Shown in pieces: positions 1-19,735 of a stretch of 32,000 nt of DNA; within the stretch, counting starts at the first letter, position 1, and each line of letters begins with the position of its first letter. The stretch is taken from assembly GCF_000018465.1 (NCBI RefSeq), contig NC_010085.1, forward strand, positions 150,001 to 182,000, written 5' to 3'. Both the position numbers and the translations under genes were made by a program. The notes under the pieces are model-generated. The model made no database searches and was not told the DNA's origin. It worked only from the letters and a program-made list of their open reading frames with translations. The stretch comes from Nitrosopumilus maritimus SCM1. Its GTDB lineage: Archaea > Thermoproteota > Nitrososphaeria > Nitrososphaerales > Nitrosopumilaceae.

Positions 1-347
1 ATAATGAAAAAATTGTATTGGGATCCTTATTTGATGGATTGGGATTTGGAAATTCTTCTACTACTTTAGGACATGCACTGTCCTATGTTTTTTCAAATGA
101 GGGAATTTCTCATGGTCATGCTTTAGCATTTACTACTTCTGCTGCTCACAAATTTAACAAATCAAAATATTTTGAACGATTTGAAAAACTAGTTTCTTTC
201 TTAGGTTTTGAACCCATCACATTAGAGCAATCATTAGATCATGCTACAGAAACAATCTTACCTGATAAAAAACACCTTGATAATAACCCAATTCCTGTAT
301 CGAAAGACGACATCTATAACTTGTTAAAAACAATTATTTCAAAATAA
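1..347 (+). CDS. iron-containing (group III) alcohol dehydrogenase, C-terminal fragment; the 5' end lies left of the window
   Basis: The frame of the listed 18..347 ORF stays open back to base 3, so the gene enters from the left edge. TAA stop at 345-347. The translation carries the Fe-ADH metal-site pattern LGHALSYVFSNEGISHGHALAF. Confidence 0.75.
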   Translation, partial: NEKIVLGSLFDGLGFGNSSTTLGHALSYVFSNEGISHGHALAFTTSAAHKFNKSKYFERFEKLVSFLGFEPITLEQSLDHATETILPDKKHLDNNPIPVSKDDIYNLLKTIISK

Positions 348-348
348 T

Positions 349-645
349 TTACTCATCAAAAATTATAACTTCATTTTGATTTTCGATGACTCTATAATTT
401 TTTAAATCTCTACCTGGATTAGTTACACAATTTCCTTTAGAAATATCAAATTCCCATCCATGACCCCCACAAGTTAATGTTTGTCCTTTAACAAATCCCA
501 ATTCTAATGGCCATTTGGCATGAGGACAGATTCCACTAACTGCAAAAATTTGTTCCCCGTTATTAAAAACAATAATTTTTGGACTGACTGATACTTCGAC
601 TAATTTACCAATAGGAATATCTTGTTTTTTTACAGTGAATTTCAT
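349..645 (-). CDS. Rieske [2Fe-2S] ferredoxin-like protein (98 aa)
   Basis: Both Rieske boxes are present with canonical spacing: GICPHAKWPL (CxH) and LTCGGHGWEF (CxxH), 16 residues apart. The ATG lies 2 nt after the stop of the upstream MBL-fold gene. Confidence 0.85.
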   Translation of the reverse strand: MKFTVKKQDIPIGKLVEVSVSPKIIVFNNGEQIFAVSGICPHAKWPLELGFVKGQTLTCGGHGWEFDISKGNCVTNPGRDLKNYRVIENQNEVIIFDE

Positions 646-647
646 AA

Positions 648-1970
648 TTAATGTAATCTATTATAGATTTTGTATATATTGCTAATTCTTGTTGGATCTG
701 GATCATATAGCAAATTAATGAAATGTTCGTTCCATTGATCAGGTTTTCTATCCCCTTGCCACCTAGCTGATAAAAATAATGTTTCCCAAAGTAGTTCATT
801 ATTAACTGCTTTTTGAACTAAATGTGCAGGGATTTTCATCCAATAATTCCAATCATCCGTTTTTCCTTCTGTTACAAAAGAACCTGATTCCTTATCTTTA
901 GAAATATCTAAAATATACTCTCCTCCATTTTTACCGTCTGCAATCAGTTGAACTTTCATATCGATATGTTTTCGTGCAACAGGGTTTTCAGAGATTATTT
1001 TGTTGAAATAATCATATATCTCATTAGATAATTTTTGTGAAGCTTCTCCTTCTTCCTTCCATCGTCTATTAAGATCTTCTTGAACTTGGATTGAAAACTC
1101 ATTTACTACATCTGTCTTGTCTGATGAAAAAATTGGATTATTATTTTTGGTGTGTGTGCCATCAATTGAAATTTCATCATCTGCTGCCATGGCTACCACT
1201 TCTGTTCCTAAATTTCCACTATTATCCCACGCCTTTTTTGGTTCATCAGGACATCCAAAAACTGAGATGGGATAGTTTAGTTTTAGTTGAGATTCATGAG
1301 GAAATAATGGGCCTCCAGCATACGGAATAGCAAATTTTGGTTTTATAGTATTTACATAATTTACAAATCCATTGATTTTATTGTCTTTTCTTTTAATAGC
1401 AATTTCATCTCGTTTCTCTTTTGAATAATTATATGCATCTGGATACCAGTTTGCCACAGAATACATGAAAAATCCAATATCTGGTTTTGCAGCATTTACT
1501 TTCTTAAGGGATTCAAAATCCATTTTACAATCAGTCTGACAAAAAACTGTTCCTTCTTTGCTTTTGATAAGTAAAGCGGAATCCTCAAACATCAAATCTG
1601 GGTTTTTAATAGATGTGATTTCTAAACCCTCATTAATTTTTTCAGGTTTCCAAGAGTCAAGAACAGTGATGTTAGAAAATCCTAATTCTTTGATAGCATT
1701 ATGAAATCTATTTGTTGGAAAATTACAAATATAGATTTGTGTTTTTTTATCAAATTGACATAATGATTCTGCTTGAAAATGATCTTCATGTTCATGAGAA
1801 ATGTAAATTGCGTCAACGTCAGTAGGAATGTTTTTCTTTGTAGCTGGTTCTCTTCTAAGTGTATACCATGTGTTTACATTGCAAGGACCAACAATCCATG
1901 GATCAACAATTATTCTAAAATTATTCGTTTCAATTAGTGTACAAGCTTGTCCTAAAAATCTTACAAACAT
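648..1970 (-). CDS. metallo-beta-lactamase-fold protein (440 aa) with a ~200-aa C-terminal extension of unknown function
   Basis: N-terminal FLGQACTLIE...IIVDPW followed by ISHEHEDHF (HxHxDH metal motif). Long uninterrupted ORF, tightly coupled to the Rieske gene downstream. Confidence 0.8.
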   Translation of the reverse strand: MFVRFLGQACTLIETNNFRIIVDPWIVGPCNVNTWYTLRREPATKKNIPTDVDAIYISHEHEDHFQAESLCQFDKKTQIYICNFPTNRFHNAIKELGFSNITVLDSWKPEKINEGLEITSIKNPDLMFEDSALLIKSKEGTVFCQTDCKMDFESLKKVNAAKPDIGFFMYSVANWYPDAYNYSKEKRDEIAIKRKDNKINGFVNYVNTIKPKFAIPYAGGPLFPHESQLKLNYPISVFGCPDEPKKAWDNSGNLGTEVVAMAADDEISIDGTHTKNNNPIFSSDKTDVVNEFSIQVQEDLNRRWKEEGEASQKLSNEIYDYFNKIISENPVARKHIDMKVQLIADGKNGGEYILDISKDKESGSFVTEGKTDDWNYWMKIPAHLVQKAVNNELLWETLFLSARWQGDRKPDQWNEHFINLLYDPDPTRISNIYKIYNRLH

Positions 1971-2014
1971 AAGTTTGTTTTAACCCAAATGGATTTAAAA
2001 GTTACATTAATTAT

Positions 2015-2839
2015 TCAACTAGAATTTTTCCCATTGATATATGATTTTAGAAGATCCGTTTTGGTAAGAACTCCCCAAATAATGTTGTTGTCATTTAATA
2101 CGCCTACTCCGTCAATTCCTTCTTTAAGTAATAATGAACAAACTTTAGAAAGATTCTCCATCATTGGAACTGAAATAATTTCTTTTGAGCTTAATTCCTG
2201 ACCTTTAATCTTATCTGAATAAAATCTCTCAAAAAGAAGTCCTGTATCTAATTCTTCACTTTGAATTGAACTAGTATTCAAATTTCTAAACCCTAACTTT
2301 AACAAATCTCTAATTGTAATAATTCCTGATGAAATCTCATTTTCTTCTTTAAGAATTAATCTGGATATGTTGAAATCAATCATTTTTTTAAAAATATGAT
2401 TGATTGGTAGATCTGAGAATTCCCATAAATAATCATTTGACATTATTTCAACAGCTTTTTTCTCTTTCAACTCTGCTTGAATATTTTTAACAATATCCGT
2501 TTTTGTTAAAATTCCATTAATTTTTTCAGATTTTATTCCTAAAGATCCAATATTTTTCTGAACCATTTCCTTTGTACATGATTTAAGATCTTCCTCAGCA
2601 TTAATAGAAAAAATTTTTTTTGAAATTTGTTCTATTGGAATTTTGTTAATTGATTCATTTTGTTTTTCAAGTAAAAAATGACAAATATCTTTTTCACTAA
2701 CGATTCTTGTTATAACGCTGTCTTCAGAAATCAAAACTCTACTAATTTTTTCTTTTAATAATTTTGAAATAGTTTCTCCAATACTTATTTTTTTGTCTAT
2801 TGTAATGGGTGAGTTCATTACATTTTTTGCAATTTTCAT
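2015..2839 (-). CDS. CBS-domain protein (apparently tandem CBS pairs, no other domain)
   Basis: Repeated CBS-like segments (...VLISEDSVITRIVSEKDI..., ...GILTKTDIVKNI..., ...GIITIRDLLKL..., ...WGVLTKTDLLKSY...). ATG at 2839. Ends 44 nt upstream of the MBL-fold gene on the same strand. Confidence 0.7.
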   Translation of the reverse strand: MKIAKNVMNSPITIDKKISIGETISKLLKEKISRVLISEDSVITRIVSEKDICHFLLEKQNESINKIPIEQISKKIFSINAEEDLKSCTKEMVQKNIGSLGIKSEKINGILTKTDIVKNIQAELKEKKAVEIMSNDYLWEFSDLPINHIFKKMIDFNISRLILKEENEISSGIITIRDLLKLGFRNLNTSSIQSEELDTGLLFERFYSDKIKGQELSSKEIISVPMMENLSKVCSLLLKEGIDGVGVLNDNNIIWGVLTKTDLLKSYINGKNSS

Positions 2840-2954
2840 AAATTATCTGAATTTAATTACTATATCAATTGATTATATATTATCAAGATTGAAACCATTC
2901 GTGCCTAAGTTTGCAGAAATTTAGTTTTAGTGAGATTTTCTATTTCAGCATTAT

Positions 2955-2961
2955 TTTAAAT
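2955..2961 (+). promoter_or_regulatory. TATA box (TTTAAAT) for the GT2/sulfotransferase transcription unit
   Basis: TTTAAAT starts 34 nt upstream of ATG 2989. This spacing fits an archaeal TATA at about -26/-30 and a leaderless or very short-leader mRNA. Confidence 0.4.
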
Positions 2962-2988
2962 AGTTAAAATTAAACAAAATGTACACTT

Positions 2989-3954
2989 ATGATGAATGAA
3001 ACCATGGAAACTAAAAAAAATTCTATGTCTGATGAAATCTTCGTTTGTATTCCTTCATATAATGCTGAATCTACAATTGAGGAAGCCATTAAACAATGTA
3101 AAAAATTTGCAACTAGTGTTTTAGTAATTAATGATGGTTCTTCTGATAAAACTGAAGAAATTGCAAAAAAAGCTGGAGCAGAAATTATTACACATAAACA
3201 GAACAAAGGATATGGTGGCTCTATCAAAACTGGTTTATCTGAGGCTTTAAGACGTAGAGCAAAAGTAACTATCACATTTGATGCTGATTTACAACATGAT
3301 TCAAATGATCTTCCAAAAATTATTCAACCAATTCTTACCAACAAAGCAGATATTGTTATTGGTTCTAGATTTTTAGAAGATAATGATAATGTTAAACCTT
3401 ATAGAAAATTTGGAATAAAATTGATAACACGACTAGTGAATTCTTTTTCTAAAAATAATATAAGAGATGCCGAAAGTGGTTTACGCGCTTATAACTATGA
3501 ATCTTTAAAAAAAATTGTTCCAAGTTTAGAAACACAAGGAATGGGAATGTCTGCTGAAATTCTTTTGAAAGCTGCTGTAAATCAATTAAAAATAATTGAA
3601 ATTCCTAGAAAAGAAATGTATCCTGATAATGTTCAAACTTCTTCTCAGAACCCCTTAAAACACGGTTTAACTGTAGTTTTAACAATCATCAAATTAATTA
3701 TTGAAACAAAACCATTACCTGCATTTGGAATTCCATCTCTTGTTTTTTTCTTTATAACTGGAATTAGTTCTTATTTTGTTGTTGAGTTTTACAATGAAAT
3801 TGGCAGACTTCCTGTAGGACTTACTATTTTTACTTTGAGCACTTTGACTATAGCATTTTTCTTAATAATGGTAGCAACAATTTTGTATGTATTGAGTAGA
3901 ATTTCTGCAAAGTTAAATTTTCAATTACATAATGATCTAAACTCAAATAATTGA
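2989..3954 (+). CDS. family 2 glycosyltransferase with C-terminal transmembrane helices (dolichyl/polyprenyl-phosphate sugar synthase type, GtrB/DPM1-like)
   Basis: GT2 signature VCIPSYNAESTIEEAI...VINDGSSDKTEEIA...NKGYGGSIKTG...FDADLQHD (DxD-like). The C-terminus has hydrophobic helices (LPAFGIPSLVFFFITGISSYFVV, LTIFTLSTLTIAFFLIMVATILYVL). A later start at Met13 (3025) is possible. Confidence 0.85.
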   Translation: MMNETMETKKNSMSDEIFVCIPSYNAESTIEEAIKQCKKFATSVLVINDGSSDKTEEIAKKAGAEIITHKQNKGYGGSIKTGLSEALRRRAKVTITFDADLQHDSNDLPKIIQPILTNKADIVIGSRFLEDNDNVKPYRKFGIKLITRLVNSFSKNNIRDAESGLRAYNYESLKKIVPSLETQGMGMSAEILLKAAVNQLKIIEIPRKEMYPDNVQTSSQNPLKHGLTVVLTIIKLIIETKPLPAFGIPSLVFFFITGISSYFVVEFYNEIGRLPVGLTIFTLSTLTIAFFLIMVATILYVLSRISAKLNFQLHNDLNSNN

Positions 3955-3959
3955 TGTAA

Positions 3960-4847
3960 ATGCTAGCTGCTACTTTTTCAAGAATGATAAGAAATGTATT
4001 TTTTTATTCATACCGATTGGCTACTAGCTTTTTTAGAATGACCCCTAATTTTATTATTATTGGGGCACCAAAATGTGGCACCACATCTCTATACAATTAT
4101 CTAATACAACACCCACAAATTTTGTCTTCTTCTAGAAAGGAACCAATGTTCTTTAGCATGTTTTATAATAAGAATCCATTATGGTATAAAATTAATTTTC
4201 CTATAAAATTTGGTCATTCTAAAAAAATTACTGGAGAAGCTTCTACATCCTATTTGATCTATCCAAATGTTCCAAAACTTGTTAAAGAAATGTTACCGGA
4301 TGTAAAAATTATCATTATGTTACGAAATCCGATTGATAGATCTTTTTCGCAATACACTCATCATTATAGATCTGGAGTTGAGACTTTGTCTTTTGAAGAA
4401 GCAATTAATGAAGAAGAAAAAAGACTTCAAGGTACTTTAGAAGAAATAGAAAACTCAAAACCTCTAAAAGGTTTTTCATACCTGAAGTCTCTTTTCTTTT
4501 TTAACCCCTCTAATATCTTAACATTTTCAAATTTATTTGGAGGCATTTATGTAGATCAAATTAAAAATTGGACAGATGTGTTTCCTTCAGATCAAATTAA
4601 AATCGTTTTTAGTGAGGAATTTTTTAAAGATTCAGACAAAATTTATCAAGATGTGTTAAAGTTTTTAGAACTTCCAAGCTACAAATTAATGAATTATAAA
4701 GCATTTAATGCAGATTATAAAAAAAATCCATCTGTTTCAAATCCAAAAATGAATATCGATACTCGCAAAAAACTTGTAGAATATTTTAAACCTCATAACA
4801 AACGTCTGAGTGATTTTTTAAATAAACCAATTAACTGGGATAGTTAA
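3960..4847 (+). CDS. PAPS-dependent sulfotransferase family protein
   Basis: 5'-phosphosulfate-binding loop FIIIGAPKCGTTSLYNYL and 3'-phosphate-binding motif IIMLRNPIDRSFSQY. Starts 5 nt after the GT2 stop. An alternative start at Met27 (4038) would remove a 26-aa N-terminal extension. Confidence 0.8.
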   Translation: MLAATFSRMIRNVFFYSYRLATSFFRMTPNFIIIGAPKCGTTSLYNYLIQHPQILSSSRKEPMFFSMFYNKNPLWYKINFPIKFGHSKKITGEASTSYLIYPNVPKLVKEMLPDVKIIIMLRNPIDRSFSQYTHHYRSGVETLSFEEAINEEEKRLQGTLEEIENSKPLKGFSYLKSLFFFNPSNILTFSNLFGGIYVDQIKNWTDVFPSDQIKIVFSEEFFKDSDKIYQDVLKFLELPSYKLMNYKAFNADYKKNPSVSNPKMNIDTRKKLVEYFKPHNKRLSDFLNKPINWDS

Positions 4848-5857
4848 TTAATTTTCTTCTTCAAAAATTCTATAGATTTTACTGGTGAAGGATCTATTTT
4901 TTCAATTATTGCTTTATAGATTGAAGAATAGTCTAACAAGTATATCAAGTAGACTAATTTTGTTAAAATAGAACCTGTTGGTGAGGAAATAACATTATAC
5001 TGAATATGGTTTTTCTTAAAATACTCTTTAACAATTTTTTGTAATTTTTTAGTTTTTATATAATCATCTTTTCCTTCCAACAATATTGGTTGTATTGAAC
5101 TAGTTTTTTCCCAAGAAACTATTCCATTATGTGACATTTCTATAATATCTTCAGACATGGCATGAAGTTTTGCATTTTCTTGTAATGAATTCTTGAATCT
5201 AATTGCAGCTGCTTTGAATCCATTTGGATAATATATTATTGGAATGTTATTGATCCATTTTGCAAGTTCTAATGATTTATTTTTTTTATCTAATTTGTGT
5301 GATGCAATATTTTTTGAAAGTTGTTCTAAATCATTAATTGATTTTAAGATAATATTTTGTTTTAATGGAATCATTGGTTCAAGAGTATTTAGAATTGAAT
5401 AAAAAAAGCTAACAAACGAAGCTCTAGGAGAATGTACTATAGGAATTTGTCTATATTCAATTTTATTATTATTACAGAATTTTTCAATTTTACCTCCTGA
5501 TGAAAATGCAATTATTTTACATCCTCTTTTTTTTGCTTGTTTTAAAACAGTATGTGTTTCAATAGTATTTCCTGAAACACTAATTGGAATTACAAGAGTT
5601 TTGGGATTAATAGATTCTGGTAGATGGAATCCTTTGATTGTTGAAACATTTAGATTAGTTTTAGAAAAAATAGATGAAAACCCATCTCCAATTGAACCTG
5701 AACCACCCATTCCAGAAAAAATTATTTCATTAATGTCCTTGAAATCTATTTTTTCCGTTGGTTGAAAAAATGCTTTACGTGCAAGTTCTGGCCATTTATC
5801 ATATACTTCACACATCTTCTGGGGATCATATTTTTTCAAATCTCTAGATGAAATCAA
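4844..5857 (-). CDS. SIS-domain bifunctional phosphoglucose/phosphomannose isomerase-like protein
   Basis: SIS sugar-phosphate binding pattern IIFSGMGGSGSIGD...VIPISVSGNTIETH...IIAFSSGG. TTG start at 5857. Its stop overlaps the sulfotransferase stop (TTAA at 4844-4847). Confidence 0.7.
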   Translation of the reverse strand: MISSRDLKKYDPQKMCEVYDKWPELARKAFFQPTEKIDFKDINEIIFSGMGGSGSIGDGFSSIFSKTNLNVSTIKGFHLPESINPKTLVIPISVSGNTIETHTVLKQAKKRGCKIIAFSSGGKIEKFCNNNKIEYRQIPIVHSPRASFVSFFYSILNTLEPMIPLKQNIILKSINDLEQLSKNIASHKLDKKNKSLELAKWINNIPIIYYPNGFKAAAIRFKNSLQENAKLHAMSEDIIEMSHNGIVSWEKTSSIQPILLEGKDDYIKTKKLQKIVKEYFKKNHIQYNVISSPTGSILTKLVYLIYLLDYSSIYKAIIEKIDPSPVKSIEFLKKKIN

Positions 5858-5949
5858 CTACGATAATCAATTTTATATGAAATATAATGTTTAGTTATTC
5901 CAAATAAACTAATTTCTTAAAATATTAGTGCCTATATTGTGAAATCTGT

Positions 5950-6876
5950 ATGAAAATTCTTGTAACTGGTGGAGCTGGATTTATTGGAAGGCACTTAATA
6001 AAAAAAATTAATAAAAAACATGAATTAATAATTTTTGAAAATTTTTCTAATAGTGATGAAAAAAATATTTCCTATTTATTAAATGATAAAACTAAATTAG
6101 TTAAAGGTGATCTAACTGATTTTTCTTTGATCAATTCTAGTTTATCTAATGTTGATCTTGTAATTCATCTAGCAGCAAAAATTGATATTTTGCAATCAAT
6201 TGAGCATCCTGATCAAACACATAAAATCAATGTAGAAGGAAGTTTGAATCTTCTTCGAGCTTGTGTAAAAAATAATGTTAAAAATTTTATTGCTGCTTCT
6301 TCTGCAGCAGTATATGGTAATCCAAAACAAATTCCTGTAACAGAGTTTACAATTCCTAACCCTGTATCACCATATGGTGCTGATAAGATTGCTTTAGAAT
6401 TCTATTTACGTGCTTTTTGTAATGCTTATGGAATTAATGGAATAGCATTAAGATTTTTTAATGTTTATGGACTTGGACAATCTAATGCTTATGCTGGAGT
6501 TATAACAAAATTCCTGAATCAAATTCATCAAACTAAACCATTAAGAATATTTGGAGATGGAAAAAACACTAGAGATTTTATTCATATTGATGATTTAGTA
6601 ATGGGAATTGAACAGTCAATTTCAAACATATCAGGTAAAAGAGGAAGTGTTTACAATTTAGCAAGTGGCAAATCTGTATCTGTTAAAGAATTAGCTAAAT
6701 TGATGCTAGAAATTTCAGACAAAAAATTAGAAATAAAATATGAATCTCCTAGAAAAGGTGATCTGCTTTATAGTTCTGCCTCAATTGATTTGGCCAAAAA
6801 TGACCTTAGTTTTGTGCCTAAAATATCTCTAAAAGATGGAATTTCTAGTCTAATGAAGGAAATAAATTATCAATAG
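5950..6876 (+). CDS. NAD-dependent nucleotide-sugar epimerase/dehydratase (extended SDR; UDP-glucose 4-epimerase-like)
   Basis: MKILVTGGAGFIGRHL Rossmann motif, catalytic SPYGADK (YxxxK), and FFNVYG / TRDFIHIDD blocks typical of GalE-like enzymes. Confidence 0.85.
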   Translation: MKILVTGGAGFIGRHLIKKINKKHELIIFENFSNSDEKNISYLLNDKTKLVKGDLTDFSLINSSLSNVDLVIHLAAKIDILQSIEHPDQTHKINVEGSLNLLRACVKNNVKNFIAASSAAVYGNPKQIPVTEFTIPNPVSPYGADKIALEFYLRAFCNAYGINGIALRFFNVYGLGQSNAYAGVITKFLNQIHQTKPLRIFGDGKNTRDFIHIDDLVMGIEQSISNISGKRGSVYNLASGKSVSVKELAKLMLEISDKKLEIKYESPRKGDLLYSSASIDLAKNDLSFVPKISLKDGISSLMKEINYQ

Positions 6877-8946: not shown

Positions 8947-9906
8947 ATGAATAAATCAAAAATTATTTTAATTGGGACCTCCTCCATAATGGAATTTCAT
9001 ATTCAAGCTTTGAGAAAATCTGGTTTGAATCCTATTGCGATTGCTTCATCAAATCCAAACTCATTAACATATGAAAAATTTGCTAAAAAAAATAAAATCT
9101 CAAAAACATTTCAAAATTGGAAGGATATGGTGAAAAATGAAAACTATGATGGGATATTAATTGCAACTAAAATTGAATGTACTTTTGAAATTTTGAATTT
9201 CTGTTTAAAAAAAAATGTTCCTATTTTAGTTGAAAAACCAGTTGGTTTTAATTCTATAAAATTGAAAAAAATTATTCAAAAATCACATGGAATGGTGATG
9301 GTTGGTTATAATCGAAGATTTTACAAACCTATTAATTATTTGAAAAACCTTTTATTAAAAAATTGTAATCCAGTTATAGCAAATATGGTAGTTCCAGAAA
9401 TTCCTGGAGAAAAAAATTTTTATTCAAATTCTACCCATAGTATAGATATCCTTAGATATATCTTTGGTGAAATAAAATTAGAATTTGTAAAAAAATTAAT
9501 AAAAAATAATAAAATCTTGGGTTTTGTTGCTACTTTTTCAAATCAAAATCAAGACTTGATAAATTTTATTGGAAATTGGAATTCTTCTGACAACTTTTCA
9601 TTATCTCTTTACCAAAATACTAAAAAATTTGAATTAAAACCATTTGAACAACTTAACATATTTGATGGAATTAAAATCATAGAGCCGACTAAAACAAATC
9701 CTATAAGACAATATGTTCCAAAATTACAAAAAACTATCACCTTGGATAAAATGGATGTACTCTTAAAACCCGGATTTTATTTACAGGCAAAAGCTTTTGC
9801 TAAACTCATTAAAACTAGGCAAAAAAATGATTATTCAGCTACGTTATCTGATGCTATGAAAAACCTCGAATTATGTGAGAAATTAATTGGGAAACTTAGA
9901 ATCTAA
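8947..9906 (+). CDS. Gfo/Idh/MocA family oxidoreductase
   Basis: N-terminal ILIGTSSIMEFHIQALRKSG, family-typical PILVEKPV (EKP motif) and VGYNRRF. Starts 6 nt after the previous gene. Confidence 0.7.
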   Translation: MNKSKIILIGTSSIMEFHIQALRKSGLNPIAIASSNPNSLTYEKFAKKNKISKTFQNWKDMVKNENYDGILIATKIECTFEILNFCLKKNVPILVEKPVGFNSIKLKKIIQKSHGMVMVGYNRRFYKPINYLKNLLLKNCNPVIANMVVPEIPGEKNFYSNSTHSIDILRYIFGEIKLEFVKKLIKNNKILGFVATFSNQNQDLINFIGNWNSSDNFSLSLYQNTKKFELKPFEQLNIFDGIKIIEPTKTNPIRQYVPKLQKTITLDKMDVLLKPGFYLQAKAFAKLIKTRQKNDYSATLSDAMKNLELCEKLIGKLRI

Positions 9907-9977
9907 TCTTTAAAAAACTGTTAATTTGAGCTAATTTTTAAAAAGTTTTTATTGTTTTTCAAATTGCTTGTAACAAT

Positions 9978-10616
9978 ATGAGTACAGTTTCTCCACAAGC
10001 AATTGAAAATTCATTAAAACAATGTATGGATCCTGAAGTTCCACTAAATATTGTTGAGATGGGATTAATCTATGGAATTGATGTGGCAGAAAATAATGAT
10101 GTTAATATCAAAATGACAATGACTACTCAAGGCTGTCCTCTTCATGAAACTCTAGTTTCTGATGCAACAAGATTTGTCAAAAAAGTTCCTGGAGTAAATA
10201 ATGTCAATATTGAGATCGTATGGGACCCTCCCTGGTCAATGGATAAAATGTCTGAAGAGGCAAAAATTAAAATCAAAAACATGGGTGCTGGAATGAATAC
10301 TCCTGCACCAATAAATTATGAAACTGCATTACCTCAAGGTGTTGGAAAACTAGTTCAACAAGAGGATGGTTCTATGGTATTAGCAAACGAACATGATCAA
10401 GGATTTATGGTAAATCAAGCAATAGTTGATTTTTGGAAATCATGTAATGGCCAACGTAAGGTTACTGATTTGGTTGAAATTTTTGCTCAACAAACAGGAC
10501 TACAAAGAAACCAAGTTGAAAAAGAAGTCATGCAATTACTTCAACAATTACGTGATGGTGGACTAATTGCAATTGCTGGACAGCCAGATGCTCCAAATGT
10601 TGAATTTAAAAAATAA
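9978..10616 (+). CDS. fusion protein: N-terminal DUF59/MIP18 (SufT-like Fe-S assembly) domain + C-terminal PqqD-like (RRE-type winged-helix) domain
   Basis: N-half: CMDPEVPLNIVEMGLIYGIDV...MTTQGCPLHETL...VWDPPWS (DUF59 pattern). C-half: VQQEDGSMVLANEHDQGFMVNQAIVDFWKSCNGQRKVTDLVEIFAQQTGLQRNQVEKEVMQLLQQLRDGGLI (PqqD family pattern). Confidence 0.65.
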   Translation: MSTVSPQAIENSLKQCMDPEVPLNIVEMGLIYGIDVAENNDVNIKMTMTTQGCPLHETLVSDATRFVKKVPGVNNVNIEIVWDPPWSMDKMSEEAKIKIKNMGAGMNTPAPINYETALPQGVGKLVQQEDGSMVLANEHDQGFMVNQAIVDFWKSCNGQRKVTDLVEIFAQQTGLQRNQVEKEVMQLLQQLRDGGLIAIAGQPDAPNVEFKK

Positions 10617-10618
10617 TT

Positions 10619-11266
10619 TTAGAAAATATAGTTTGAATTTGCACCATCAAAGTTTATTGTAACACCTGACAAGTATTTTATTTTATTTTGAACAATTGAC
10701 TTTACAAAATTTCCAATTTCATCAGGCTCTCCAAGTCTCTTCATAGGTAGTGATTTCTGATATTCTTCTACATTTTCTATTAATTCTTGAGTCCTGTCTG
10801 TGTTAATTGGTCCTGGAGCAATGTTAATACAACTAATTTGATTTTTAGCATATTCTTTACTTAATACTTTGAATATTTCTGCAAATGCTGCACGATATGC
10901 TGATGAAATTATTAATTTTGAATTTGGTTCTTTAATGACACTTGAACTAATTAGAAAAATATATCCTCCATTATTGATTTTGATATTTTGTAAAATTGTT
11001 ACAAATCCTAGGAATAATTGGTTGTGATATAATTTCCAATCATCTTCTGTAATTGTTGCAAATGGTTTTGGTTCTGGACCGCCTGTATTTAGAACCAAAA
11101 TATCTGTTTGATTATGATTTTTTAAAAATTCTCTCACACTGTCCAAATTTGATGTGTCAATGTCATTTTTTGATGCTGCAAAAACATCAATTTCTAATGA
11201 TTTTAGTGATTCAGAGATTGCTTTTCCTATGCCTCTAGAACCCCCTAAAACAATTGCACTAGTCAT
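10619..11266 (-). CDS. short-chain dehydrogenase/reductase (SDR) family oxidoreductase
   Basis: VLGGSRGIGKAI cofactor motif, NTGGP, SSAYRAAFAE (YxxxK-like region) and APGPINTDR. Confidence 0.8.
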   Translation of the reverse strand: MTSAIVLGGSRGIGKAISESLKSLEIDVFAASKNDIDTSNLDSVREFLKNHNQTDILVLNTGGPEPKPFATITEDDWKLYHNQLFLGFVTILQNIKINNGGYIFLISSSVIKEPNSKLIISSAYRAAFAEIFKVLSKEYAKNQISCINIAPGPINTDRTQELIENVEEYQKSLPMKRLGEPDEIGNFVKSIVQNKIKYLSGVTINFDGANSNYIF

Positions 11267-12699: not shown

Positions 12700-12742
12700 T
12701 TCATTTTTGTGGCAAACTATTTGCTTAATAAGATAATCTAAA

Positions 12743-12816
12743 GGGCTCGGAGGGCTTCGATCCCTCGACCTGGCGGTTCGAAGCCGCCCGCACTATCCAG
12801 GCTGTGCAACGAGTCC
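12743..12816 (-). tRNA. tRNA-Arg (anticodon TCG)
   Basis: The minus strand reads GGACTCG TT GCAC AGCCTGGATA GTGC G GGCGG CTTCGAA CCGCC AGGTC GAGGG ATCGAAG CCCTC CGAGCCC. This gives a full cloverleaf with perfect D, anticodon and T stems. There is one A3-C70 mismatch in the acceptor stem. Confidence 0.85.
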
Positions 12817-12860
12817 AAACAAGTAAGAATTTAACGGGCCTAAATATCTGTCTAGATACT

Positions 12861-14036
12861 TTGAAGGTATCAAAAAAAGTAGCAGGTGTAGAGTATGCAA
12901 TTAGAGATATTGTTCTTGCAGCAAGAAAAGTGCAACAAAAAGGAATGCAAGTCGACTATCTCAATATTGGTGATCCTGTCCAATTTGGTTTTCAACCACC
13001 TGATAATGTCAAACAAGCTTTGATTGATGCAATTAACAATGGCGAAAATTACTATTCCACTTCTGAAGGACTTTTAGACTTGCGACAAGAGATTGCTAAA
13101 AAAGAAAATACCAAAGGATTGTCAATTTCTGCTGATGAGATTCTAGTTACAAATGGTGTCTCTGAAGGACTAGATATGGTGATTTCTTCAATTGTAGAAG
13201 AAGGAGATGAAGTACTTCTTCCAGGACCCTATTATCCTCCTTATGCTTCATATGTTAGACTGCATGGTGGGGTACCTGTAGAATTTGCAGTTGACTTGGA
13301 TAATTCTACTCCTGATATTGATGATATAAAATCCAAAATCACTTCAAAGACTGTTGCCATCTGTTTGATTAGTCCAAACAATCCTACTGGTGTTGTATTT
13401 AATGAAAAATCTCTCAGAGAACTAGTAGATATTGCAAATCAACATAATCTCTACATAATTTGTGATGAGATTTATGATCAGATTGTCTTTGATGAAAAAT
13501 TTGTTGGAATTGGTAAAGTTGCAGGAGATTCTCCCGTAATCGTTCTAAATGGTTTTTCTAAAGTCCACTTGATGTCTGGTTGGAGAATTGGCTATATTGC
13601 ATTTAACAATTCACCAAAACTTGATGCAATAAGAGAAAATCTTCCTAAATTAGCTAGGGTGCGTATTGCAACAAGCCTGCCTATTCAACATGCTGCCTTG
13701 GAATCACTACGAGGTCCTCAAGACTATATCTCTAATTTTGTATCTGAAATCAAAAAACGTAGAGACTTGGTTGTAAAACGACTCAATGAAATGCCAGGAT
13801 TATCTTGCCCAAATCCAAAAGGTTCTTTCTATGCATTTCCAAAAATTGAAGACAATAGATTTGGAACAGACAAAGAATTTGTTACAAAACTTTTGGAATC
13901 AAAAGGAGTGTTAACTGTACATGGCTCTGGATTTGGAGAACAATATGGAAGTGGTCATTTCAGACTAGTTTATCTTCCTAGTCTTGAAATTTTAGATTCT
14001 GCAATGAACAAGATTGAAGAGTTTGTTAGTCAGTAA
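12861..14036 (+). CDS. class I/II pyridoxal-phosphate aminotransferase (archaeal alanine/aspartate aminotransferase-like)
   Basis: VEYAIRDIV...DYLNIGDP N-terminal block typical of archaeal AlaAT-like enzymes, NPTGVV, and FSKVHLMSGWRIGY (PLP lysine motif SK). The track start (12804) lies inside tRNA-Arg, so I moved it to the in-frame TTG at 12861. The start remains uncertain. Confidence 0.8.
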   Translation: MKVSKKVAGVEYAIRDIVLAARKVQQKGMQVDYLNIGDPVQFGFQPPDNVKQALIDAINNGENYYSTSEGLLDLRQEIAKKENTKGLSISADEILVTNGVSEGLDMVISSIVEEGDEVLLPGPYYPPYASYVRLHGGVPVEFAVDLDNSTPDIDDIKSKITSKTVAICLISPNNPTGVVFNEKSLRELVDIANQHNLYIICDEIYDQIVFDEKFVGIGKVAGDSPVIVLNGFSKVHLMSGWRIGYIAFNNSPKLDAIRENLPKLARVRIATSLPIQHAALESLRGPQDYISNFVSEIKKRRDLVVKRLNEMPGLSCPNPKGSFYAFPKIEDNRFGTDKEFVTKLLESKGVLTVHGSGFGEQYGSGHFRLVYLPSLEILDSAMNKIEEFVSQ

Positions 14037-16328: not shown

Positions 16329-16760
16329 ATGGGTGGACATTCTAACTGGCCTGAATGGATTTACGTTGGTGTTGTAATTGCTATCATGTGTTGGGTTGGT
16401 GCTGAAGCTTGGGAAGCAGAAAGACTAGTTGAGCATGTCCCTGAAGGTGCTGAAATTATCAAAGTAACCGGACAACAATGGTTCTGGACTTTTGAACATG
16501 AAGATGGTACTAAAGAAATTGGTGAATTACATGTTGAAAAAGGCAAAGCCTACAAATTTGAAATTCATTCAACTGATGTAAATCACTCTTTTAACATTCA
16601 CGATTATGTTGTTTTAATGGATGCAATTCCTGGTAGAGTTAACACTGTATGGTTTGCACCAACTGATGTTGGAGAACATGATATTCAATGTAGAGAATAT
16701 TGTGGATTAATTCACTATAACATGCGTGGAACGTTAATTGTGGAGGAACCACACTCTTGA
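16329..16760 (+). CDS. coxB: heme-copper oxidase subunit II (single TM helix + CuA cupredoxin domain)
   Basis: Complete CuA site: HSFNIHD ... CREYCGLIHYNM (CxExCGxxHxxM). QQWFWTFE is the aromatic entry motif. One N-terminal TM helix (WIYVGVVIAIMCWVGA). Confidence 0.85.
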   Translation: MGGHSNWPEWIYVGVVIAIMCWVGAEAWEAERLVEHVPEGAEIIKVTGQQWFWTFEHEDGTKEIGELHVEKGKAYKFEIHSTDVNHSFNIHDYVVLMDAIPGRVNTVWFAPTDVGEHDIQCREYCGLIHYNMRGTLIVEEPHS

Positions 16761-16797
16761 TAACGCTTTTATCCGAATCACTGGAGGGAATTAACTA

Positions 16798-18324
16798 ATG
16801 GTTCTGGAATTACAAAAACCACGTCCAATTTGGCAAATAATGTTCTCAACACATCACACTGATGTTGGTTTACTTTATCTTATCATGTCACTAGGATTCT
16901 TGTTCTTGGGTGGTGCGTTAGCACTTGCAATTAGAGCTGAATTATTCTTGCCAGGTGCACAAATCATTGGTGATGCAATGACCTTTAACAGAATCTTTAC
17001 AGTTCACGGAACTACTCTTATCTTCTTGTTTATCATACCATTTGCATCTGCTGTTGGTAACTACTTTGTTCCAATTATGGTCAGATACAAAGACATGGCT
17101 TATCCAAAACTCAATGCAATTGCATTTTGGATGATTCCTCCATCAGGAGCACTCATCTGGTTAGGCTTTGCAGACTTTACTTGGTATGCAACTCCTCCAT
17201 ATTCTATTATCAGTGCTCCAGGTCCAGCAGCAGACATGTGGATCTTTGGACTAAAGATTTTAGGTGTATCTTCAGTTCTTGGTGCAATCAACTTTGTCGT
17301 TACAATTCTCAAATGTAAACACCCAGACATGTCAATTGGTCAAGTACCGCTATTGGCTTGGTCCTTCTTGTCATCATCATTAATCATCCTTGTTGCAATT
17401 CCAACATTTGCAGCAGCACTGTTGATGTTGTTAACTGACAGACTCGGTGTAACTGGATTCTTTAATCCCGCAATGGGAGGAGATCCAATTGCATATGCAC
17501 ACTTGTTCTGGTTTACATTCCATCCAGAAGTATACGTTCTTGTCATTCCAGCTATTGGTATGATGTATGAAATTATTCCAAGATTCTCAAGAAAACCAAT
17601 TTACAGTTTCAACTCTGGTATCTTTGCCTTTGTACTATTATCTATTGTTGGTTTCTCATCATGGGCTCACCACATGTATGCAACTGGAATGTCCTTTACA
17701 GAAAAGACTGTATTCATGGTAGGAACTCTTGCAGCAGTTCCAGCATCTGCAATGCACGTCTATAACTTCATTGCAACAATGTGGAATGGTAGAATCAAGT
17801 TCTCAACTCCAATGATGTGGGCTGTTGGCGGAATTGCATTATTCTTCTCAGCAGGTGCAGGTGGTGTAGCAAATGCTGCAATGCCATTAGACTTTACAAC
17901 TCACGATACTTACTGGGTAGTTGGACACTTCCATCTCTTTGTGATGGGAACTATTGCATTTGGTTCAATCGGATTCCTTTACTACATGTACCCATATGTT
18001 ACAGGCAGAATGTACAATGAAGCCATGGGTAAGATTCACTTCTTCTTATCATTTATAGGAACAATTTTGGTATTCTTTACTCAACACGTACTTGGATTAT
18101 ATGGAATGCCAAGAAGAATATTTGATTATCCACCAATCCCAGAATGGATTGCAATGAACCAAATTGCATCAATTGGTGCAATGGTAATTGGTGTCAGTAT
18201 GGTTGTCTTTTTGGTTAACATGGTTTACAGCGCTGGAAAAGGAGAACCTGCAAACCCAGAGGATCCATTTGGTGTTGGAGGCAAATACTATTATCCGTTC
18301 GAGTCAAAGAACCCATCACATTAG
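16798..18324 (+). CDS. coxA: heme-copper oxidase subunit I
   Basis: WFTFHPEVYVLVIP (CuB His + Glu + cross-link Tyr), SWAHHMY (CuB His pair) and VVGHFHLFVMG (heme ligands), with 12 or more hydrophobic helices. GGAGG at 16783-16787 lies 10 nt before the ATG. Confidence 0.92.
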   Translation: MVLELQKPRPIWQIMFSTHHTDVGLLYLIMSLGFLFLGGALALAIRAELFLPGAQIIGDAMTFNRIFTVHGTTLIFLFIIPFASAVGNYFVPIMVRYKDMAYPKLNAIAFWMIPPSGALIWLGFADFTWYATPPYSIISAPGPAADMWIFGLKILGVSSVLGAINFVVTILKCKHPDMSIGQVPLLAWSFLSSSLIILVAIPTFAAALLMLLTDRLGVTGFFNPAMGGDPIAYAHLFWFTFHPEVYVLVIPAIGMMYEIIPRFSRKPIYSFNSGIFAFVLLSIVGFSSWAHHMYATGMSFTEKTVFMVGTLAAVPASAMHVYNFIATMWNGRIKFSTPMMWAVGGIALFFSAGAGGVANAAMPLDFTTHDTYWVVGHFHLFVMGTIAFGSIGFLYYMYPYVTGRMYNEAMGKIHFFLSFIGTILVFFTQHVLGLYGMPRRIFDYPPIPEWIAMNQIASIGAMVIGVSMVVFLVNMVYSAGKGEPANPEDPFGVGGKYYYPFESKNPSH

Positions 18325-18336
18325 GAGATTAATGAA

Positions 18337-19284
18337 ATGACTGAAAATCAATACTATCTAACAACCCCTGCAAGAACAGGAAAAATGATGGCAATTATGC
18401 TAGGTATTTGTATTGTAGGTGGAGCAATCTTCTTTTCACTTTGGGATTATTGGATTTCAGAACCTGCCCCAGTTGTTGCAATGATGGGAGGTGATTCTAC
18501 ACCAACTGCAGTTGCAGTTCACACTGGTGCAACCATTACATCTGATCTTTCATTTATCGAATCTTCTGACTTTATCACTTTAGCATTTAATGCATTACCT
18601 GGTGAACCTGGTAACAACCCAACAATCAACATGGAAGTTGGTGACAAAGTAATCTTTAACGTAGTAAATGATGGTGTATCATTCCACTCCTTTGGTGTTA
18701 CAGCAGACACTGAGGGCTTTGGAGGAATTTTCCCAGGAAGTGAAGTTGCAAGTCCAGCAAATCCTCTAAAATCAGGTGAAGGTGGAACTTCAGAATTTAT
18801 CGCAGGTGAAGAAGGCGTATTCTATTACATTTGTACAGTTCCTGGTCACAGAGAACAAGGAATGGTTGGAAAAATCATTGTAGGTGACGCCGAGGTTCCA
18901 GAAGAAGTTGTTGAAGCCGTACCAGAACCAATGGCAACTGAACCAGCCGAAGAAAAGGCTCCTGTTTCAACTGAACCAGTTGCATATGATGGTCCAATAT
19001 CCCTCCCAGAAGGCTCTGGAGTTCCTGGATGTCAGGAAACAAATGAATGCTATATCCCATATCATGTAACAGCACCAGCAGGAACCGAGATTGTTTGGTC
19101 AAATGATGACACTGCTGCTCATACTGTTACAAGCGGTTCTCCTGCAGATGGTCCTGATGGAATATTTGACAGTAGTATACTTGCTGGAGGTTTAACATTC
19201 TCTGTAACCCTTGATGAACCAGGTGAATATCCTTACTATTGTATAGTTCATCCTTGGATGGTTGGCAACATCACAATAGAATAG
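18337..19284 (+). CDS. membrane-anchored blue (type 1) copper protein with two plastocyanin-like cupredoxin domains
   Basis: N-terminal TM helix (MMAIMLGICIVGGAIFFSLW). Domain 1 ligands: FHSFGV ... CTVPGHREQGM. Domain 2 ligands: AAHTVTSG ... YYCIVHPWM. An acidic Pro/Glu linker (PEEVVEAVPEPMATEPAEEKAPVSTEP) joins them. AGGAG at 18323-18327 precedes the ATG. Confidence 0.9.
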   Translation: MTENQYYLTTPARTGKMMAIMLGICIVGGAIFFSLWDYWISEPAPVVAMMGGDSTPTAVAVHTGATITSDLSFIESSDFITLAFNALPGEPGNNPTINMEVGDKVIFNVVNDGVSFHSFGVTADTEGFGGIFPGSEVASPANPLKSGEGGTSEFIAGEEGVFYYICTVPGHREQGMVGKIIVGDAEVPEEVVEAVPEPMATEPAEEKAPVSTEPVAYDGPISLPEGSGVPGCQETNECYIPYHVTAPAGTEIVWSNDDTAAHTVTSGSPADGPDGIFDSSILAGGLTFSVTLDEPGEYPYYCIVHPWMVGNITIE

Positions 19285-19291
19285 AAAAATT

Positions 19292-19735
19292 TTGGCTATC
19301 CAATATCTTGCTCTAGCAACAATGATTGTATTGTATTCACTTATGTTCTTAGGTGGATATATTTCAGCAGCTGGATTGGGACTAACTTGTCCTGAATGGC
19401 CATTATGTCCAAATGGTGTAATGCCATCTGAAGAATATCTTATTGAATGGATTCATAGATTGGCAGCTGCTACTACAGGTGTTTTGGTTATTGCAACTAT
19501 GGTTGCAAGCTTTCTCAACAAAAGAGCTGATACAAAAATTAAAGTTACAAGTACACTTGCAACAGTATTTGTTATTACCCAAATTACACTTGGTGCACTA
19601 GTAATTGACACAAAACTTCATGCGGTTCTAGTTGCAATTCACTTGGGAATTGGAATATTGTTATTCTCAATGGTATTGTTAACTGCCTTGTTTGCCTTTA
19701 GAATTTCACGAGAATCCCAAGAGATCAAAGTCTAG
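19292..19735 (+). CDS. ctaA: compact (4-TM) heme A synthase-like protein (CtaA/COX15 family, half-size archaeal type)
   Basis: GLGLTCPEWPLCPNG...LIEWIHRLAA closely parallels the CtaA N-terminal Cys pair and EWxHR motif. There are four predicted helices and a second His in helix 4 (LVAIHLGIG). The TTG start at 19292 is uncertain; Met11 is possible. Confidence 0.6.
   Translation: MAIQYLALATMIVLYSLMFLGGYISAAGLGLTCPEWPLCPNGVMPSEEYLIEWIHRLAAATTGVLVIATMVASFLNKRADTKIKVTSTLATVFVITQITLGALVIDTKLHAVLVAIHLGIGILLFSMVLLTALFAFRISRESQEIKV

Follow-up and report, generated by a model that had tools for sequence, protein, structure and literature searches.

What reaction is carried out by a small Rieske protein and a metallo-β-lactamase (MBL)-fold protein that are encoded back to back in Nitrosopumilus maritimus SCM1, a marine ammonia-oxidizing archaeon? 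The pair lies near the start of the window analyzed here, the whole stretch of 32,000 nucleotides (nt) at positions 150,001 to 182,000 of contig NC_010085.1, which we number from 1. Both genes are open reading frames (ORFs) on the minus strand with Pfam support: the MBL-fold protein Nmar_0163 (440 amino acids (aa)) is encoded at 648..1970, and the stand-alone Rieske [2Fe-2S] protein Nmar_0162 (98 aa) at 349..645. We propose that the two are probably the subunits of a NamH/CMAH-family oxygenase, Nmar_0163 the catalytic and Nmar_0162 the electron-transfer one, which hydroxylates an N-acetyl sugar. Members of this family turn N-acetyl into N-glycolyl sugars.

An exact look-up identified the window proteins, at 100% identity, as N. 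maritimus SCM1 ABX12060 (a CBS protein encoded next to the pair), ABX12059 (MBL) and ABX12058 (Rieske), which NCBI names 'CBS domain-containing protein', 'MBL fold metallo-hydrolase' and 'Rieske (2Fe-2S) protein'. Only the CBS gene is labelled in the source, as Nmar_0164; the tags Nmar_0163 and Nmar_0162 were derived from the consecutive accessions. The initial annotation of this stretch, made from the DNA letters and their translations, had described an MBL-fold ORF of 440 aa ending 2 nt before the ATG of a 98-aa Rieske gene, a signature motif in each protein, and a CBS ORF 44 nt upstream of the MBL ATG on the same (minus) strand; motifs and spacings were all borne out on re-reading. The junction (646..650, minus strand) reads ...cat TAA tt ATG aaa..., that is, the MBL stop codon and a 2-nt spacer before the Rieske start, an arrangement that suggests translational coupling. 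The motif ISHEHEDHF of Nmar_0163 corresponds to H59-x-H61-x-D63-H64 and lies in a Pfam Lactamase_B_3 match (residues 3–165, E 5.5e-13). In Nmar_0162, the motif CPH-x16-CGGH provides all four cluster ligands, C41, H43, C59 and H62, and Pfam recognizes the Rieske domain at E 8.8e-16.

A homologue search covering 5.8 billion proteins returned two groups of matches to Nmar_0163. The first consists of about 50 close relatives (55–86% identity; the full-length ones 436–465 aa) that lack a Rieske domain and come from Nitrosopumilus wherever the source gives an organism. The second group comprises proteins of 514–525 aa that are 27–32% identical to Nmar_0163; those with 95–98% query coverage have E values of 6e-53 to 9e-37. 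Several proteins of this group carry the IMG name UDP-MurNAc hydroxylase (MurNAc, N-acetylmuramic acid), and one homologue of 565 aa is named CMP-N-acetylneuraminate monooxygenase. According to Pfam, a C-terminal Rieske domain (about residues 440–505) follows the MBL and SCP2 parts of the 514–525-aa proteins, and only the CMAH-named protein among those homologues has its Rieske domain at the N terminus. Nmar_0163 itself contains no Rieske domain in Pfam, the module being supplied by the separate Nmar_0162. A CMAH-ordered protein, P0059, also matches Nmar_0163, at E 1.8e-12 (here and below, P numbers denote homologues and L numbers the fetched loci that encode them). A profile search against 1.84 billion cluster representatives retrieved 869 family members at E <= 1e-30. 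Among the 150 best of these, most have the length of fused proteins (505–545 aa), and about a quarter are 415–460 aa long.

The residues that define the family are retained in Nmar_0163. DPW (23–25), W35, D130-S131, D147, A173, P177, A218-G219 and R408 are all present. In a set of 139 diverse members, S131 is conserved in 88% and every other one of these positions, those of HxHxDH included, in at least 90%. The one deviation is T146, where 95% of members have an asparagine. The alignment, domain content and conserved positions support the assignment of Nmar_0163 to the NamH/CMAH family of Rieske-dependent hydroxylases rather than to a hydrolase family. One homologue, P0060 (623 aa, from a Logan assembly), has a GNAT N-acetyltransferase fused N-terminally to the MBL-SCP2-Rieske array. 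This fusion fits N-acyl chemistry, and the protein could first add an N-acetyl group and then hydroxylate the same group.

The initial annotation had left the C-terminal extension of about 200 aa in Nmar_0163 without a role. Pfam, AlphaFold2 and Foldseek now resolve it into a helical linker (about residues 236–313) and an SCP2-like domain (about residues 314–440; 651..1031, minus strand), which follow an MBL-fold domain delimited by conservation, Foldseek and the family profile (about residues 1–235; 1266..1970, minus strand). The Pfam model PF25451, 'Rv3818-like, SCP2-like domain' (SCP2_Rv3818), gives a sub-threshold match to residues 316–430 (E 5e-5) and also matches 28 of 42 aligned relatives (best E 6e-11). 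It was built on Rv3818, which is NamH, the mycobacterial UDP-N-acetylmuramic acid hydroxylase and a bacterial relative of animal CMAH. The AlphaFold2 model of full-length Nmar_0163 has a predicted local distance difference test (pLDDT) score of 93.5, and the 200 C-terminal residues, modelled on their own, reach a pLDDT of 88. With the C-terminal model as query, Foldseek found sterol carrier protein 2 structures (E 3e-5, template-modelling (TM) score about 0.6) and the SCP2-like domain of SdsA1 alkylsulfatases. The PF25451 match and the SCP2-type fold together identify the extension as a linker plus the family-defining SCP2-like domain. An SdsA1-like alkylsulfatase was considered and ruled out, as the likeness is confined to the SCP2 domain.

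The nature of the metal site bears on the proposal, made in the initial annotation, that the enzyme is an oxygenase rather than a hydrolytic MBL. H59, H61, D63, H64 and D147 are each kept in 99–100% of the 139 diverse members, and D130 is kept in 91% (it is an asparagine in ten). No conserved histidine is present at MBL motifs 3 or 5 in this set, so the histidines of a canonical di-zinc hydrolytic centre are not maintained. Position 225 is Asp, His or Glu in about 70% of members and is a histidine in Nmar_0163. The putative metal ligands of Nmar_0163 are thus H59, H61, D63, H64, D130, D147 and possibly H225. D130 would stand in place of the motif-3 histidine; N123 is the other candidate for this position, the two HMMER alignments disagreeing between D130 and N123. 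Such a ligand set would differ from the canonical di-zinc set and resembles the carboxylate-rich set of MBL-fold diiron enzymes. When the family profile was compared with all Protein Data Bank (PDB) sequences, the best match was 8a90, a 'non-heme diiron monooxygenase' (E 2.4e-13), followed by CmlA (E 2e-8), and NAPE-PLD (2.4e-7) and UPF0173 hydrolases ranked below both. In a single-sequence PDB search with Nmar_0163, 8a90 was again the best match. Neither the single-sequence nor the profile search returned a CMAH or NamH entry among the PDB matches. From ligands and ranking we infer iron rather than zinc and oxygenase chemistry, and regard both as well supported.

A hydrolytic Nmar_0163 of the UlaG/UPF0173/COG2220 or NAPE-PLD type, which might be a phosphodiesterase or sulfatase on surface polymers and to which the Rieske protein would be functionally unrelated, is what the NCBI/UniProt names 'MBL fold metallo-hydrolase' and 'Zn-dependent hydrolase' imply. 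The top Foldseek matches in the PDB (TM_1162, Igni18, UlaG and NAPE-PLD) point the same way, as do the combination of MBL and SCP2 domains in SdsA1 alkylsulfatases and the existence of close bacterial relatives without any Rieske partner. It is difficult to reconcile with the missing motif-3 and motif-5 histidines, with diiron monooxygenases outranking hydrolases in the profile search, and with the UPF0173-type 'metal-dependent hydrolase' model NF001911 of NCBIfam, which reaches only 33.6 bits (cut-off, 144) and covers no more than residues 1–67. Most family representatives, moreover, have a Rieske domain fused to the same catalytic module, and here the Rieske gene lies 2 nt downstream and is kept in all seven loci described below. 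We therefore consider a hydrolase extremely unlikely, and the two database names are probably wrong for Nmar_0163.

If Nmar_0163 is a Rieske-dependent hydroxylase, its partner should be retained with it. Six relatives of Nmar_0163 (59–80% identity), located by exact-protein look-up in public assemblies, and the window together represent seven distinct Nitrosopumilaceae loci (window, L081, L082, L083/84, L086, L087 and L088). In seven of seven, a Rieske gene of 97–99 aa starts 1–7 nt after the MBL stop codon, so the co-occurrence of the two genes that the initial annotation had singled out for checking holds throughout. A frameshift artefact can be ruled out as the cause of the split, which recurs across the seven loci with a separate start codon in each. 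Nmar_0162 can also be ruled out as a Rieske oxygenase alpha subunit, because it has no catalytic domain. Its best NCBIfam match is to the HcaC/AndAb Rieske ferredoxins (E 5.7e-12), at 45.6 bits against a cut-off of 113, and in BLASTP it matches the C-terminal Rieske domains of fused homologues at E 9e-10 and 1e-8.

The published architecture of NamH has an N-terminal UlaG (MBL) domain and a C-terminal Rieske domain (PMC10050696). We scanned 85 fetched loci with family and Rieske hidden Markov models (HMMs); 80 of these, 79 bacterial and one from a Nitrosarchaeum metagenome-assembled genome, were among the matches listed. Most bacterial members have a C-terminal Rieske fusion, one locus has an N-terminal fusion (Alkalicoccobacillus, L060), and in about ten, from Binatia, Planctomycetota and others, no Rieske lies within 1.5 kb. 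Rieske-less bacterial relatives are flanked by glycosyltransferase family 4 (GT4), sulfatase-family and phosphodiesterase genes: GT4 genes adjoin both L004 and L006, and L004 also has sulfatase and type I phosphodiesterase genes. The initial annotation had described separate polypeptides in an order reversed relative to animal CMAH. The modules are indeed separate, but the order is swapped with respect to animal CMAH only and equals the domain order of NamH. Since the Rieske domain is C-terminal in NamH and in most bacterial members, the pair represents a simple fission in the common order. As judged from the alignments, the pair is a NamH-type enzyme split between its SCP2 and Rieske modules, and the junction at 646..650 would be the fission point, for in fused homologues the SCP2 domain runs on into the Rieske domain there. 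Helicobacter sp. 10-6591 (L069) has another type of split: a 119-aa Rieske gene (3648–4007) lies 51 nt upstream of the MBL gene (4058–5518), which corresponds to the CMAH order distributed over two genes.

In a neighbour-joining tree, which is distance-based, rough and without resampling, the Nitrosopumilaceae split proteins form one clade whose sister is P0070, a 439-aa protein from a soil metagenome. Downstream of P0070 (L089, 2334–2549), an ORF of 71 aa keeps CPHAYWPL and lacks the second CxxH; it is either the remnant of a decayed Rieske partner or an assembly error.

Does the CBS gene belong to the same system? Nmar_0164 (274 aa, four CBS repeats, Pfam E 1.9e-29; 2015..2839, minus strand) had been read in the initial annotation as the leader of an operon. 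The shared strand and the 44-nt gap hold for N. maritimus, but no CBS gene precedes the MBL gene in any of the six related loci (L081, L082, L083/84, L086, L087 and L088), where the upstream neighbour is a divergent glycosyltransferase family 2 (GT2) gene, a small ORF or a UDP-glucose-dehydrogenase-type gene. This absence rules out the CBS gene as a conserved operon leader. Within the 44-nt spacer, 22 nt before the MBL ATG, the TATA-like element TTTTAAAT (1993..2000, minus strand; read from the sequence only) is a candidate for a promoter of the pair's own. Its position would suit the archaeal TATA box of a short-leader transcript, although in an AT-rich genome of 30% GC such a match is weak evidence. 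Given the missing CBS gene in relatives and the TATA-like box, we treat MBL and Rieske genes as the conserved unit, most likely transcribed on their own, and the CBS protein as a neighbour that is probably not a conserved part of the system. A three-gene operon, with the CBS protein as adenosyl-ligand sensor and regulator of the hydroxylase, would account for the common strand and the short CBS–MBL gap. Besides the relatives and the box in the spacer, the protein itself speaks against it, as it has no partner domain and falls below every curated family threshold; we judge this arrangement very unlikely.

Taken as a NamH/CMAH-type hydroxylase, the pair can be assigned a plausible reaction. Nmar_0162 would take electrons from an unlinked cellular reductase and hand them to a non-heme iron centre in the MBL domain of Nmar_0163, probably dinuclear and rich in carboxylates. 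This centre would activate O2 and hydroxylate an unactivated methyl group. The only two characterized members suggest, by analogy, that this methyl group would be that of the acetamido (N-acetyl) substituent of a nucleotide-activated sugar, and the product an N-glycolyl sugar destined for a cell-surface glycan. The substrate, for which UDP-N-acetylhexosamines, diacetamido sugars and nonulosonic acids are candidates, is probably held in part by the SCP2-like domain. UDP-MurNAc is very unlikely to be the substrate, because the host lineage is not known to make murein. To our knowledge, no ammonia-oxidizing archaeon (Nitrososphaerota) does so, their envelopes consisting of a surface layer (S-layer). 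The IMG name UDP-MurNAc hydroxylase is therefore probably an over-annotation here.

That the host is not known to make murein is one of several points that weigh against this assignment. We know of no characterized member of the family that is split or archaeal, nor of any for which the metal and its nuclearity have been established; a review reported no CMAH structure as of 2016 (PMC4819959). NamH/CMAH membership was judged by proxies, namely the Rv3818-based Pfam model, IMG names and architecture, and a second homologue search with a diverse profile found no authentic Mycobacterium NamH or animal CMAH among its matches. The SCP2_Rv3818 score of Nmar_0163, 23.9 bits, lies below the Pfam gathering cut-off of 28.2. 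A Foldseek comparison with hydrolytic MBLs, suggested in the initial annotation, did not discriminate, since hydrolases and CmlA were found alike at E 1e-10 to 1e-12 and over the MBL domain only; it is the family sequence profile that favours oxygenases. The closest bacterial relatives among the matches listed (L001–L008, L012 and L014; Binatia, Planctomycetota, Margulisiibacteriota and Brocadiaceae; most about 417–460 aa) have no Rieske domain, and no Rieske gene within 1.5 kb, which means that Rieske dependence is not universal in this branch. Near the pair no reductase gene is visible, as the initial annotation had also remarked, and the window contains no nonulosonic-acid genes. Finally, a glycoproteomic study of the related N. 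piranensis did not find any N-glycans, and the same Nitrososphaerota glycoproteome paper reports no N. maritimus glycan (PMC12153357).

On the CBS side, the glycan-building island of the initial annotation was confirmed by Pfam: a GT2 gene (2989–3954, plus strand), a sulfotransferase (3960–4847, plus), a PGI/PMI-type SIS protein (4844–5857, minus) and an NAD-dependent epimerase (5950–6876, plus). The GT2, SIS and epimerase genes are syntenic in L081, L083, L086 and L088. On the Rieske side, the window begins inside the gene for an Fe-dependent alcohol dehydrogenase (Fe-ADH), whose 3' end occupies 18..347 on the plus strand (Pfam ADH_Fe_C; Nmar_0161, tag inferred) and which is probably a phosphonoacetaldehyde reductase. 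An identical N. maritimus assembly (L091) extends beyond the window start and contains, in addition to the Fe-ADH, phosphoenolpyruvate (PEP) mutase, two-subunit Ppd, nucleoside triphosphate (NTP) transferase and sulfatase-family genes and a gene for a 457-aa cupin/helix-turn-helix protein. These genes make up what is reported as the methylphosphonate pathway (Metcalf et al. 2012, Science 337:1104), with the 457-aa protein as MpnS, Nmar_0155. Nmar_0161 is the last gene of this cluster and is convergent with the Rieske gene; as the window starts within it, the pair sits on the boundary between the methylphosphonate cluster and the glycan genes. The two convergent genes end 1 nt apart (347–349), which leaves no intergenic space for terminators, and T-runs that possibly end the Rieske transcript sit within the opposing Fe-ADH coding sequence.

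Could the pair instead be a tailoring oxygenase of the adjacent phosphonate pathway, acting on a group other than a sugar N-acetyl? Its substrates could then be the methyl group of methylphosphonate or of its CMP conjugate, or derivatives of 2-hydroxyethyl- or 2-aminoethylphosphonate. The pair directly abuts the cluster, and its downstream neighbours in L083/84, L086 and L087 likewise include PEP mutase, Ppd, NTP transferase and sulfatase-family genes, with a partial set, an NTP transferase and two sulfatase-family genes, in L088. In a 1.61-Mb ammonia-oxidizer-like genome (L085), a fused MBL-SCP2-Rieske homologue of about 30% identity (P0055, 6001–7563) lies 1.9 kb from an MpnS homologue (9472–10848) that is 65% identical to N. 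maritimus MpnS; the Ppd, NTP-transferase, sulfatase and MpnS genes of this genome are 53–65% identical to their N. maritimus counterparts. Against this stands the only chemistry known for the family, hydroxylation of an acetamido methyl group. Two loci carry the pair without phosphonate genes in the DNA seen downstream (5 kb in L081, <1 kb in L082), and PEP mutase occurs within about 4 kb in 0 of the 80 other genome loci among the matches listed. Because the split loci share ancestry, the synteny common to them should be taken as one or two observations instead of five. Adjacency, moreover, may mean no more than that phosphonate cluster and glycan genes occupy one variable surface island. We consider a phosphonate substrate unlikely.

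The same L085 genome brings nonulosonic acids into consideration. There, P0055 divergently adjoins NeuB-like, NeuC-like (Epimerase_2) and MptE-like genes, and hexapeptide acyltransferase, polysaccharide deacetylase and radical-SAM genes are also nearby. Such a neighbourhood, the acyltransferase included, would suit a true CMAH analogue, that is, a hydroxylase of a CMP-nonulosonic acid of the sialic, legionaminic or pseudaminic type serving an S-layer or surface glycan. The tree lends this some weight, as it groups the split clade with unfused members and two members with an N-terminal Rieske domain and not with the NamH-type fused majority, but it is distance-based and lacks resampling support. 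No NeuB or NeuC gene was found in the window or the seven split loci. A CMP-nonulosonic acid hydroxylase thus appears quite improbable, and a hydroxylase of an N-acetyl sugar, without commitment to this class, is the assignment we retain.

Glycan and phosphonate genes might also be served by one enzyme. We regard it as a long shot that the split hydroxylase is a dedicated part of a methylphosphonate–glycan pathway of marine ammonia-oxidizing archaea. The primary hydroxyl of the new N-glycolyl group may then be the point at which methylphosphonate is esterified to a surface polymer, with the NTP transferase activating methylphosphonate and the sulfatase-family enzymes transferring it; in a rarer variant, the enzyme may hydroxylate the phosphonate methyl itself.

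From about 10 kb onward, the genes of the window are housekeeping genes. An ORF at 9978–10616 (plus strand), which is kept in L086, fuses FeS_assembly_P (MIP18-like) to a PqqD-like peptide-binding domain. ARAGORN predicts a tRNA-Arg(TCG) at 12742–12816 (minus strand), which is absent from the Rfam results at gathering score. It overlaps the GTG start of a class I/II aminotransferase ORF (12804–14036, plus), which indicates that the listed start is probably too far upstream. A terminal oxidase cluster (16329–19735, plus) encodes COX2-like and COX1 proteins, a protein of 315 aa that carries a plastocyanin domain at its C terminus, and a short protein resembling CtaA; with it, core genes resume about 10 kb from the pair.

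The known N-glycolyl sugars occur in the sialic acids of deuterostomes and the murein of actinobacteria. That abundant marine archaea conserve an intact enzyme of the NamH/CMAH type leads us to expect N-glycolyl sugars, or related N-acyl sugars with a hydroxyl group, on the surface of cells whose surface glycan chemistry is essentially unknown. No paper mentioning Nmar_0161 to Nmar_0164 was found in the literature searched, and the conserved split architecture, the location of the pair at the edge of the methylphosphonate cluster and the presence of this enzyme type in an archaeal host not known to make murein all appear to be undescribed there. The natural separation of a catalytic protein from a small Rieske protein could ease the study of the metal centre and of electron transfer in a structurally uncharacterized family. 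With a family gene beside the methylphosphonate synthase cluster in two lineages, split in one and fused in the other, the pair is a concrete candidate for an uncharacterized tailoring step in making polymers that bear phosphonate and have been connected with the oceanic methane paradox. Should the methylphosphonate–glycan scheme be true, the enzyme would define how methylphosphonate is linked in those polymers, both cell-bound and dissolved, to which aerobic methane production in the sea has been attributed.

Comparison with known systems places the pair closest to NamH (Rv3818/MSMEG_6410). The module order is the same, an MBL domain (UlaG-like), an Rv3818-type SCP2-like domain and a Rieske domain; HxHxDH and the other family-invariant residues are common to both, homologues with the NamH architecture align over 98% of Nmar_0163, and neither has a dedicated reductase gene nearby. 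Unlike in NamH, the Rieske module is a separate polypeptide of 98 aa with about 18 extra N-terminal residues, Nmar_0163 is only 27–32% identical to fused members, and the family-consensus Asn146 is a threonine. The host is an archaeon, and the genes lie in a surface-glycan and methylphosphonate island rather than among cell-wall genes. Animal CMAH shares the domain content (a Rieske domain, an MBL fold and a C-terminal domain) and likely also the chemistry, in which O2 serves to hydroxylate the acetamido methyl group of a nucleotide sugar and an external chain supplies the electrons. Its Rieske domain is fused at the N terminus, whereas that of the N. maritimus enzyme is separate and downstream, and CMAH is served by cytochrome b5 and a reductase, neither of which is evident here.

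Among proteins of known structure, the non-heme diiron β-hydroxylases of the CmlA/8a90 type are the best relatives by sequence profile. They are oxygenases that have in common with Nmar_0163 the MBL fold, HxHxDH and carboxylates in place of zinc-type histidines. The ligands of CmlA are H305, H307, D309, H310, E377 and D403. HxHxDH and the equivalent of D403 (D147) align with Nmar_0163, and E377 falls at N123 or at E129/D130, depending on which of the two HMMER alignments is used. CmlA has an N-terminal domain for carrier-protein-bound amino acids, which is absent from Nmar_0163, whose chain starts at the MBL domain; it has no SCP2 or Rieske module, and the likeness is limited to the MBL domain. 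Nmar_0163 probably works like the CmlA-type family but does not appear to be a member of it. SdsA1-type alkylsulfatases, in which an SCP2-like domain is attached C-terminally to an MBL catalytic domain, offer a structural precedent for SCP2 as a substrate-recruiting module. They differ in being hydrolytic di-zinc enzymes of another MBL subfamily with a dimerization domain; no sequence-level relation to SdsA1 was detected, and SdsA1 was absent from the top full-length matches. In the HcaC/AndAb-type Rieske ferredoxins, as in Nmar_0162, a stand-alone Rieske protein of about 100 aa shuttles, or here would shuttle, electrons to a separate non-heme-iron oxygenase. The window contains no alpha/beta oxygenase or reductase genes of an HcaC/AndAb-type operon, and the partner of Nmar_0162 is an MBL-fold protein instead of a Rieske/mononuclear-iron alpha subunit.

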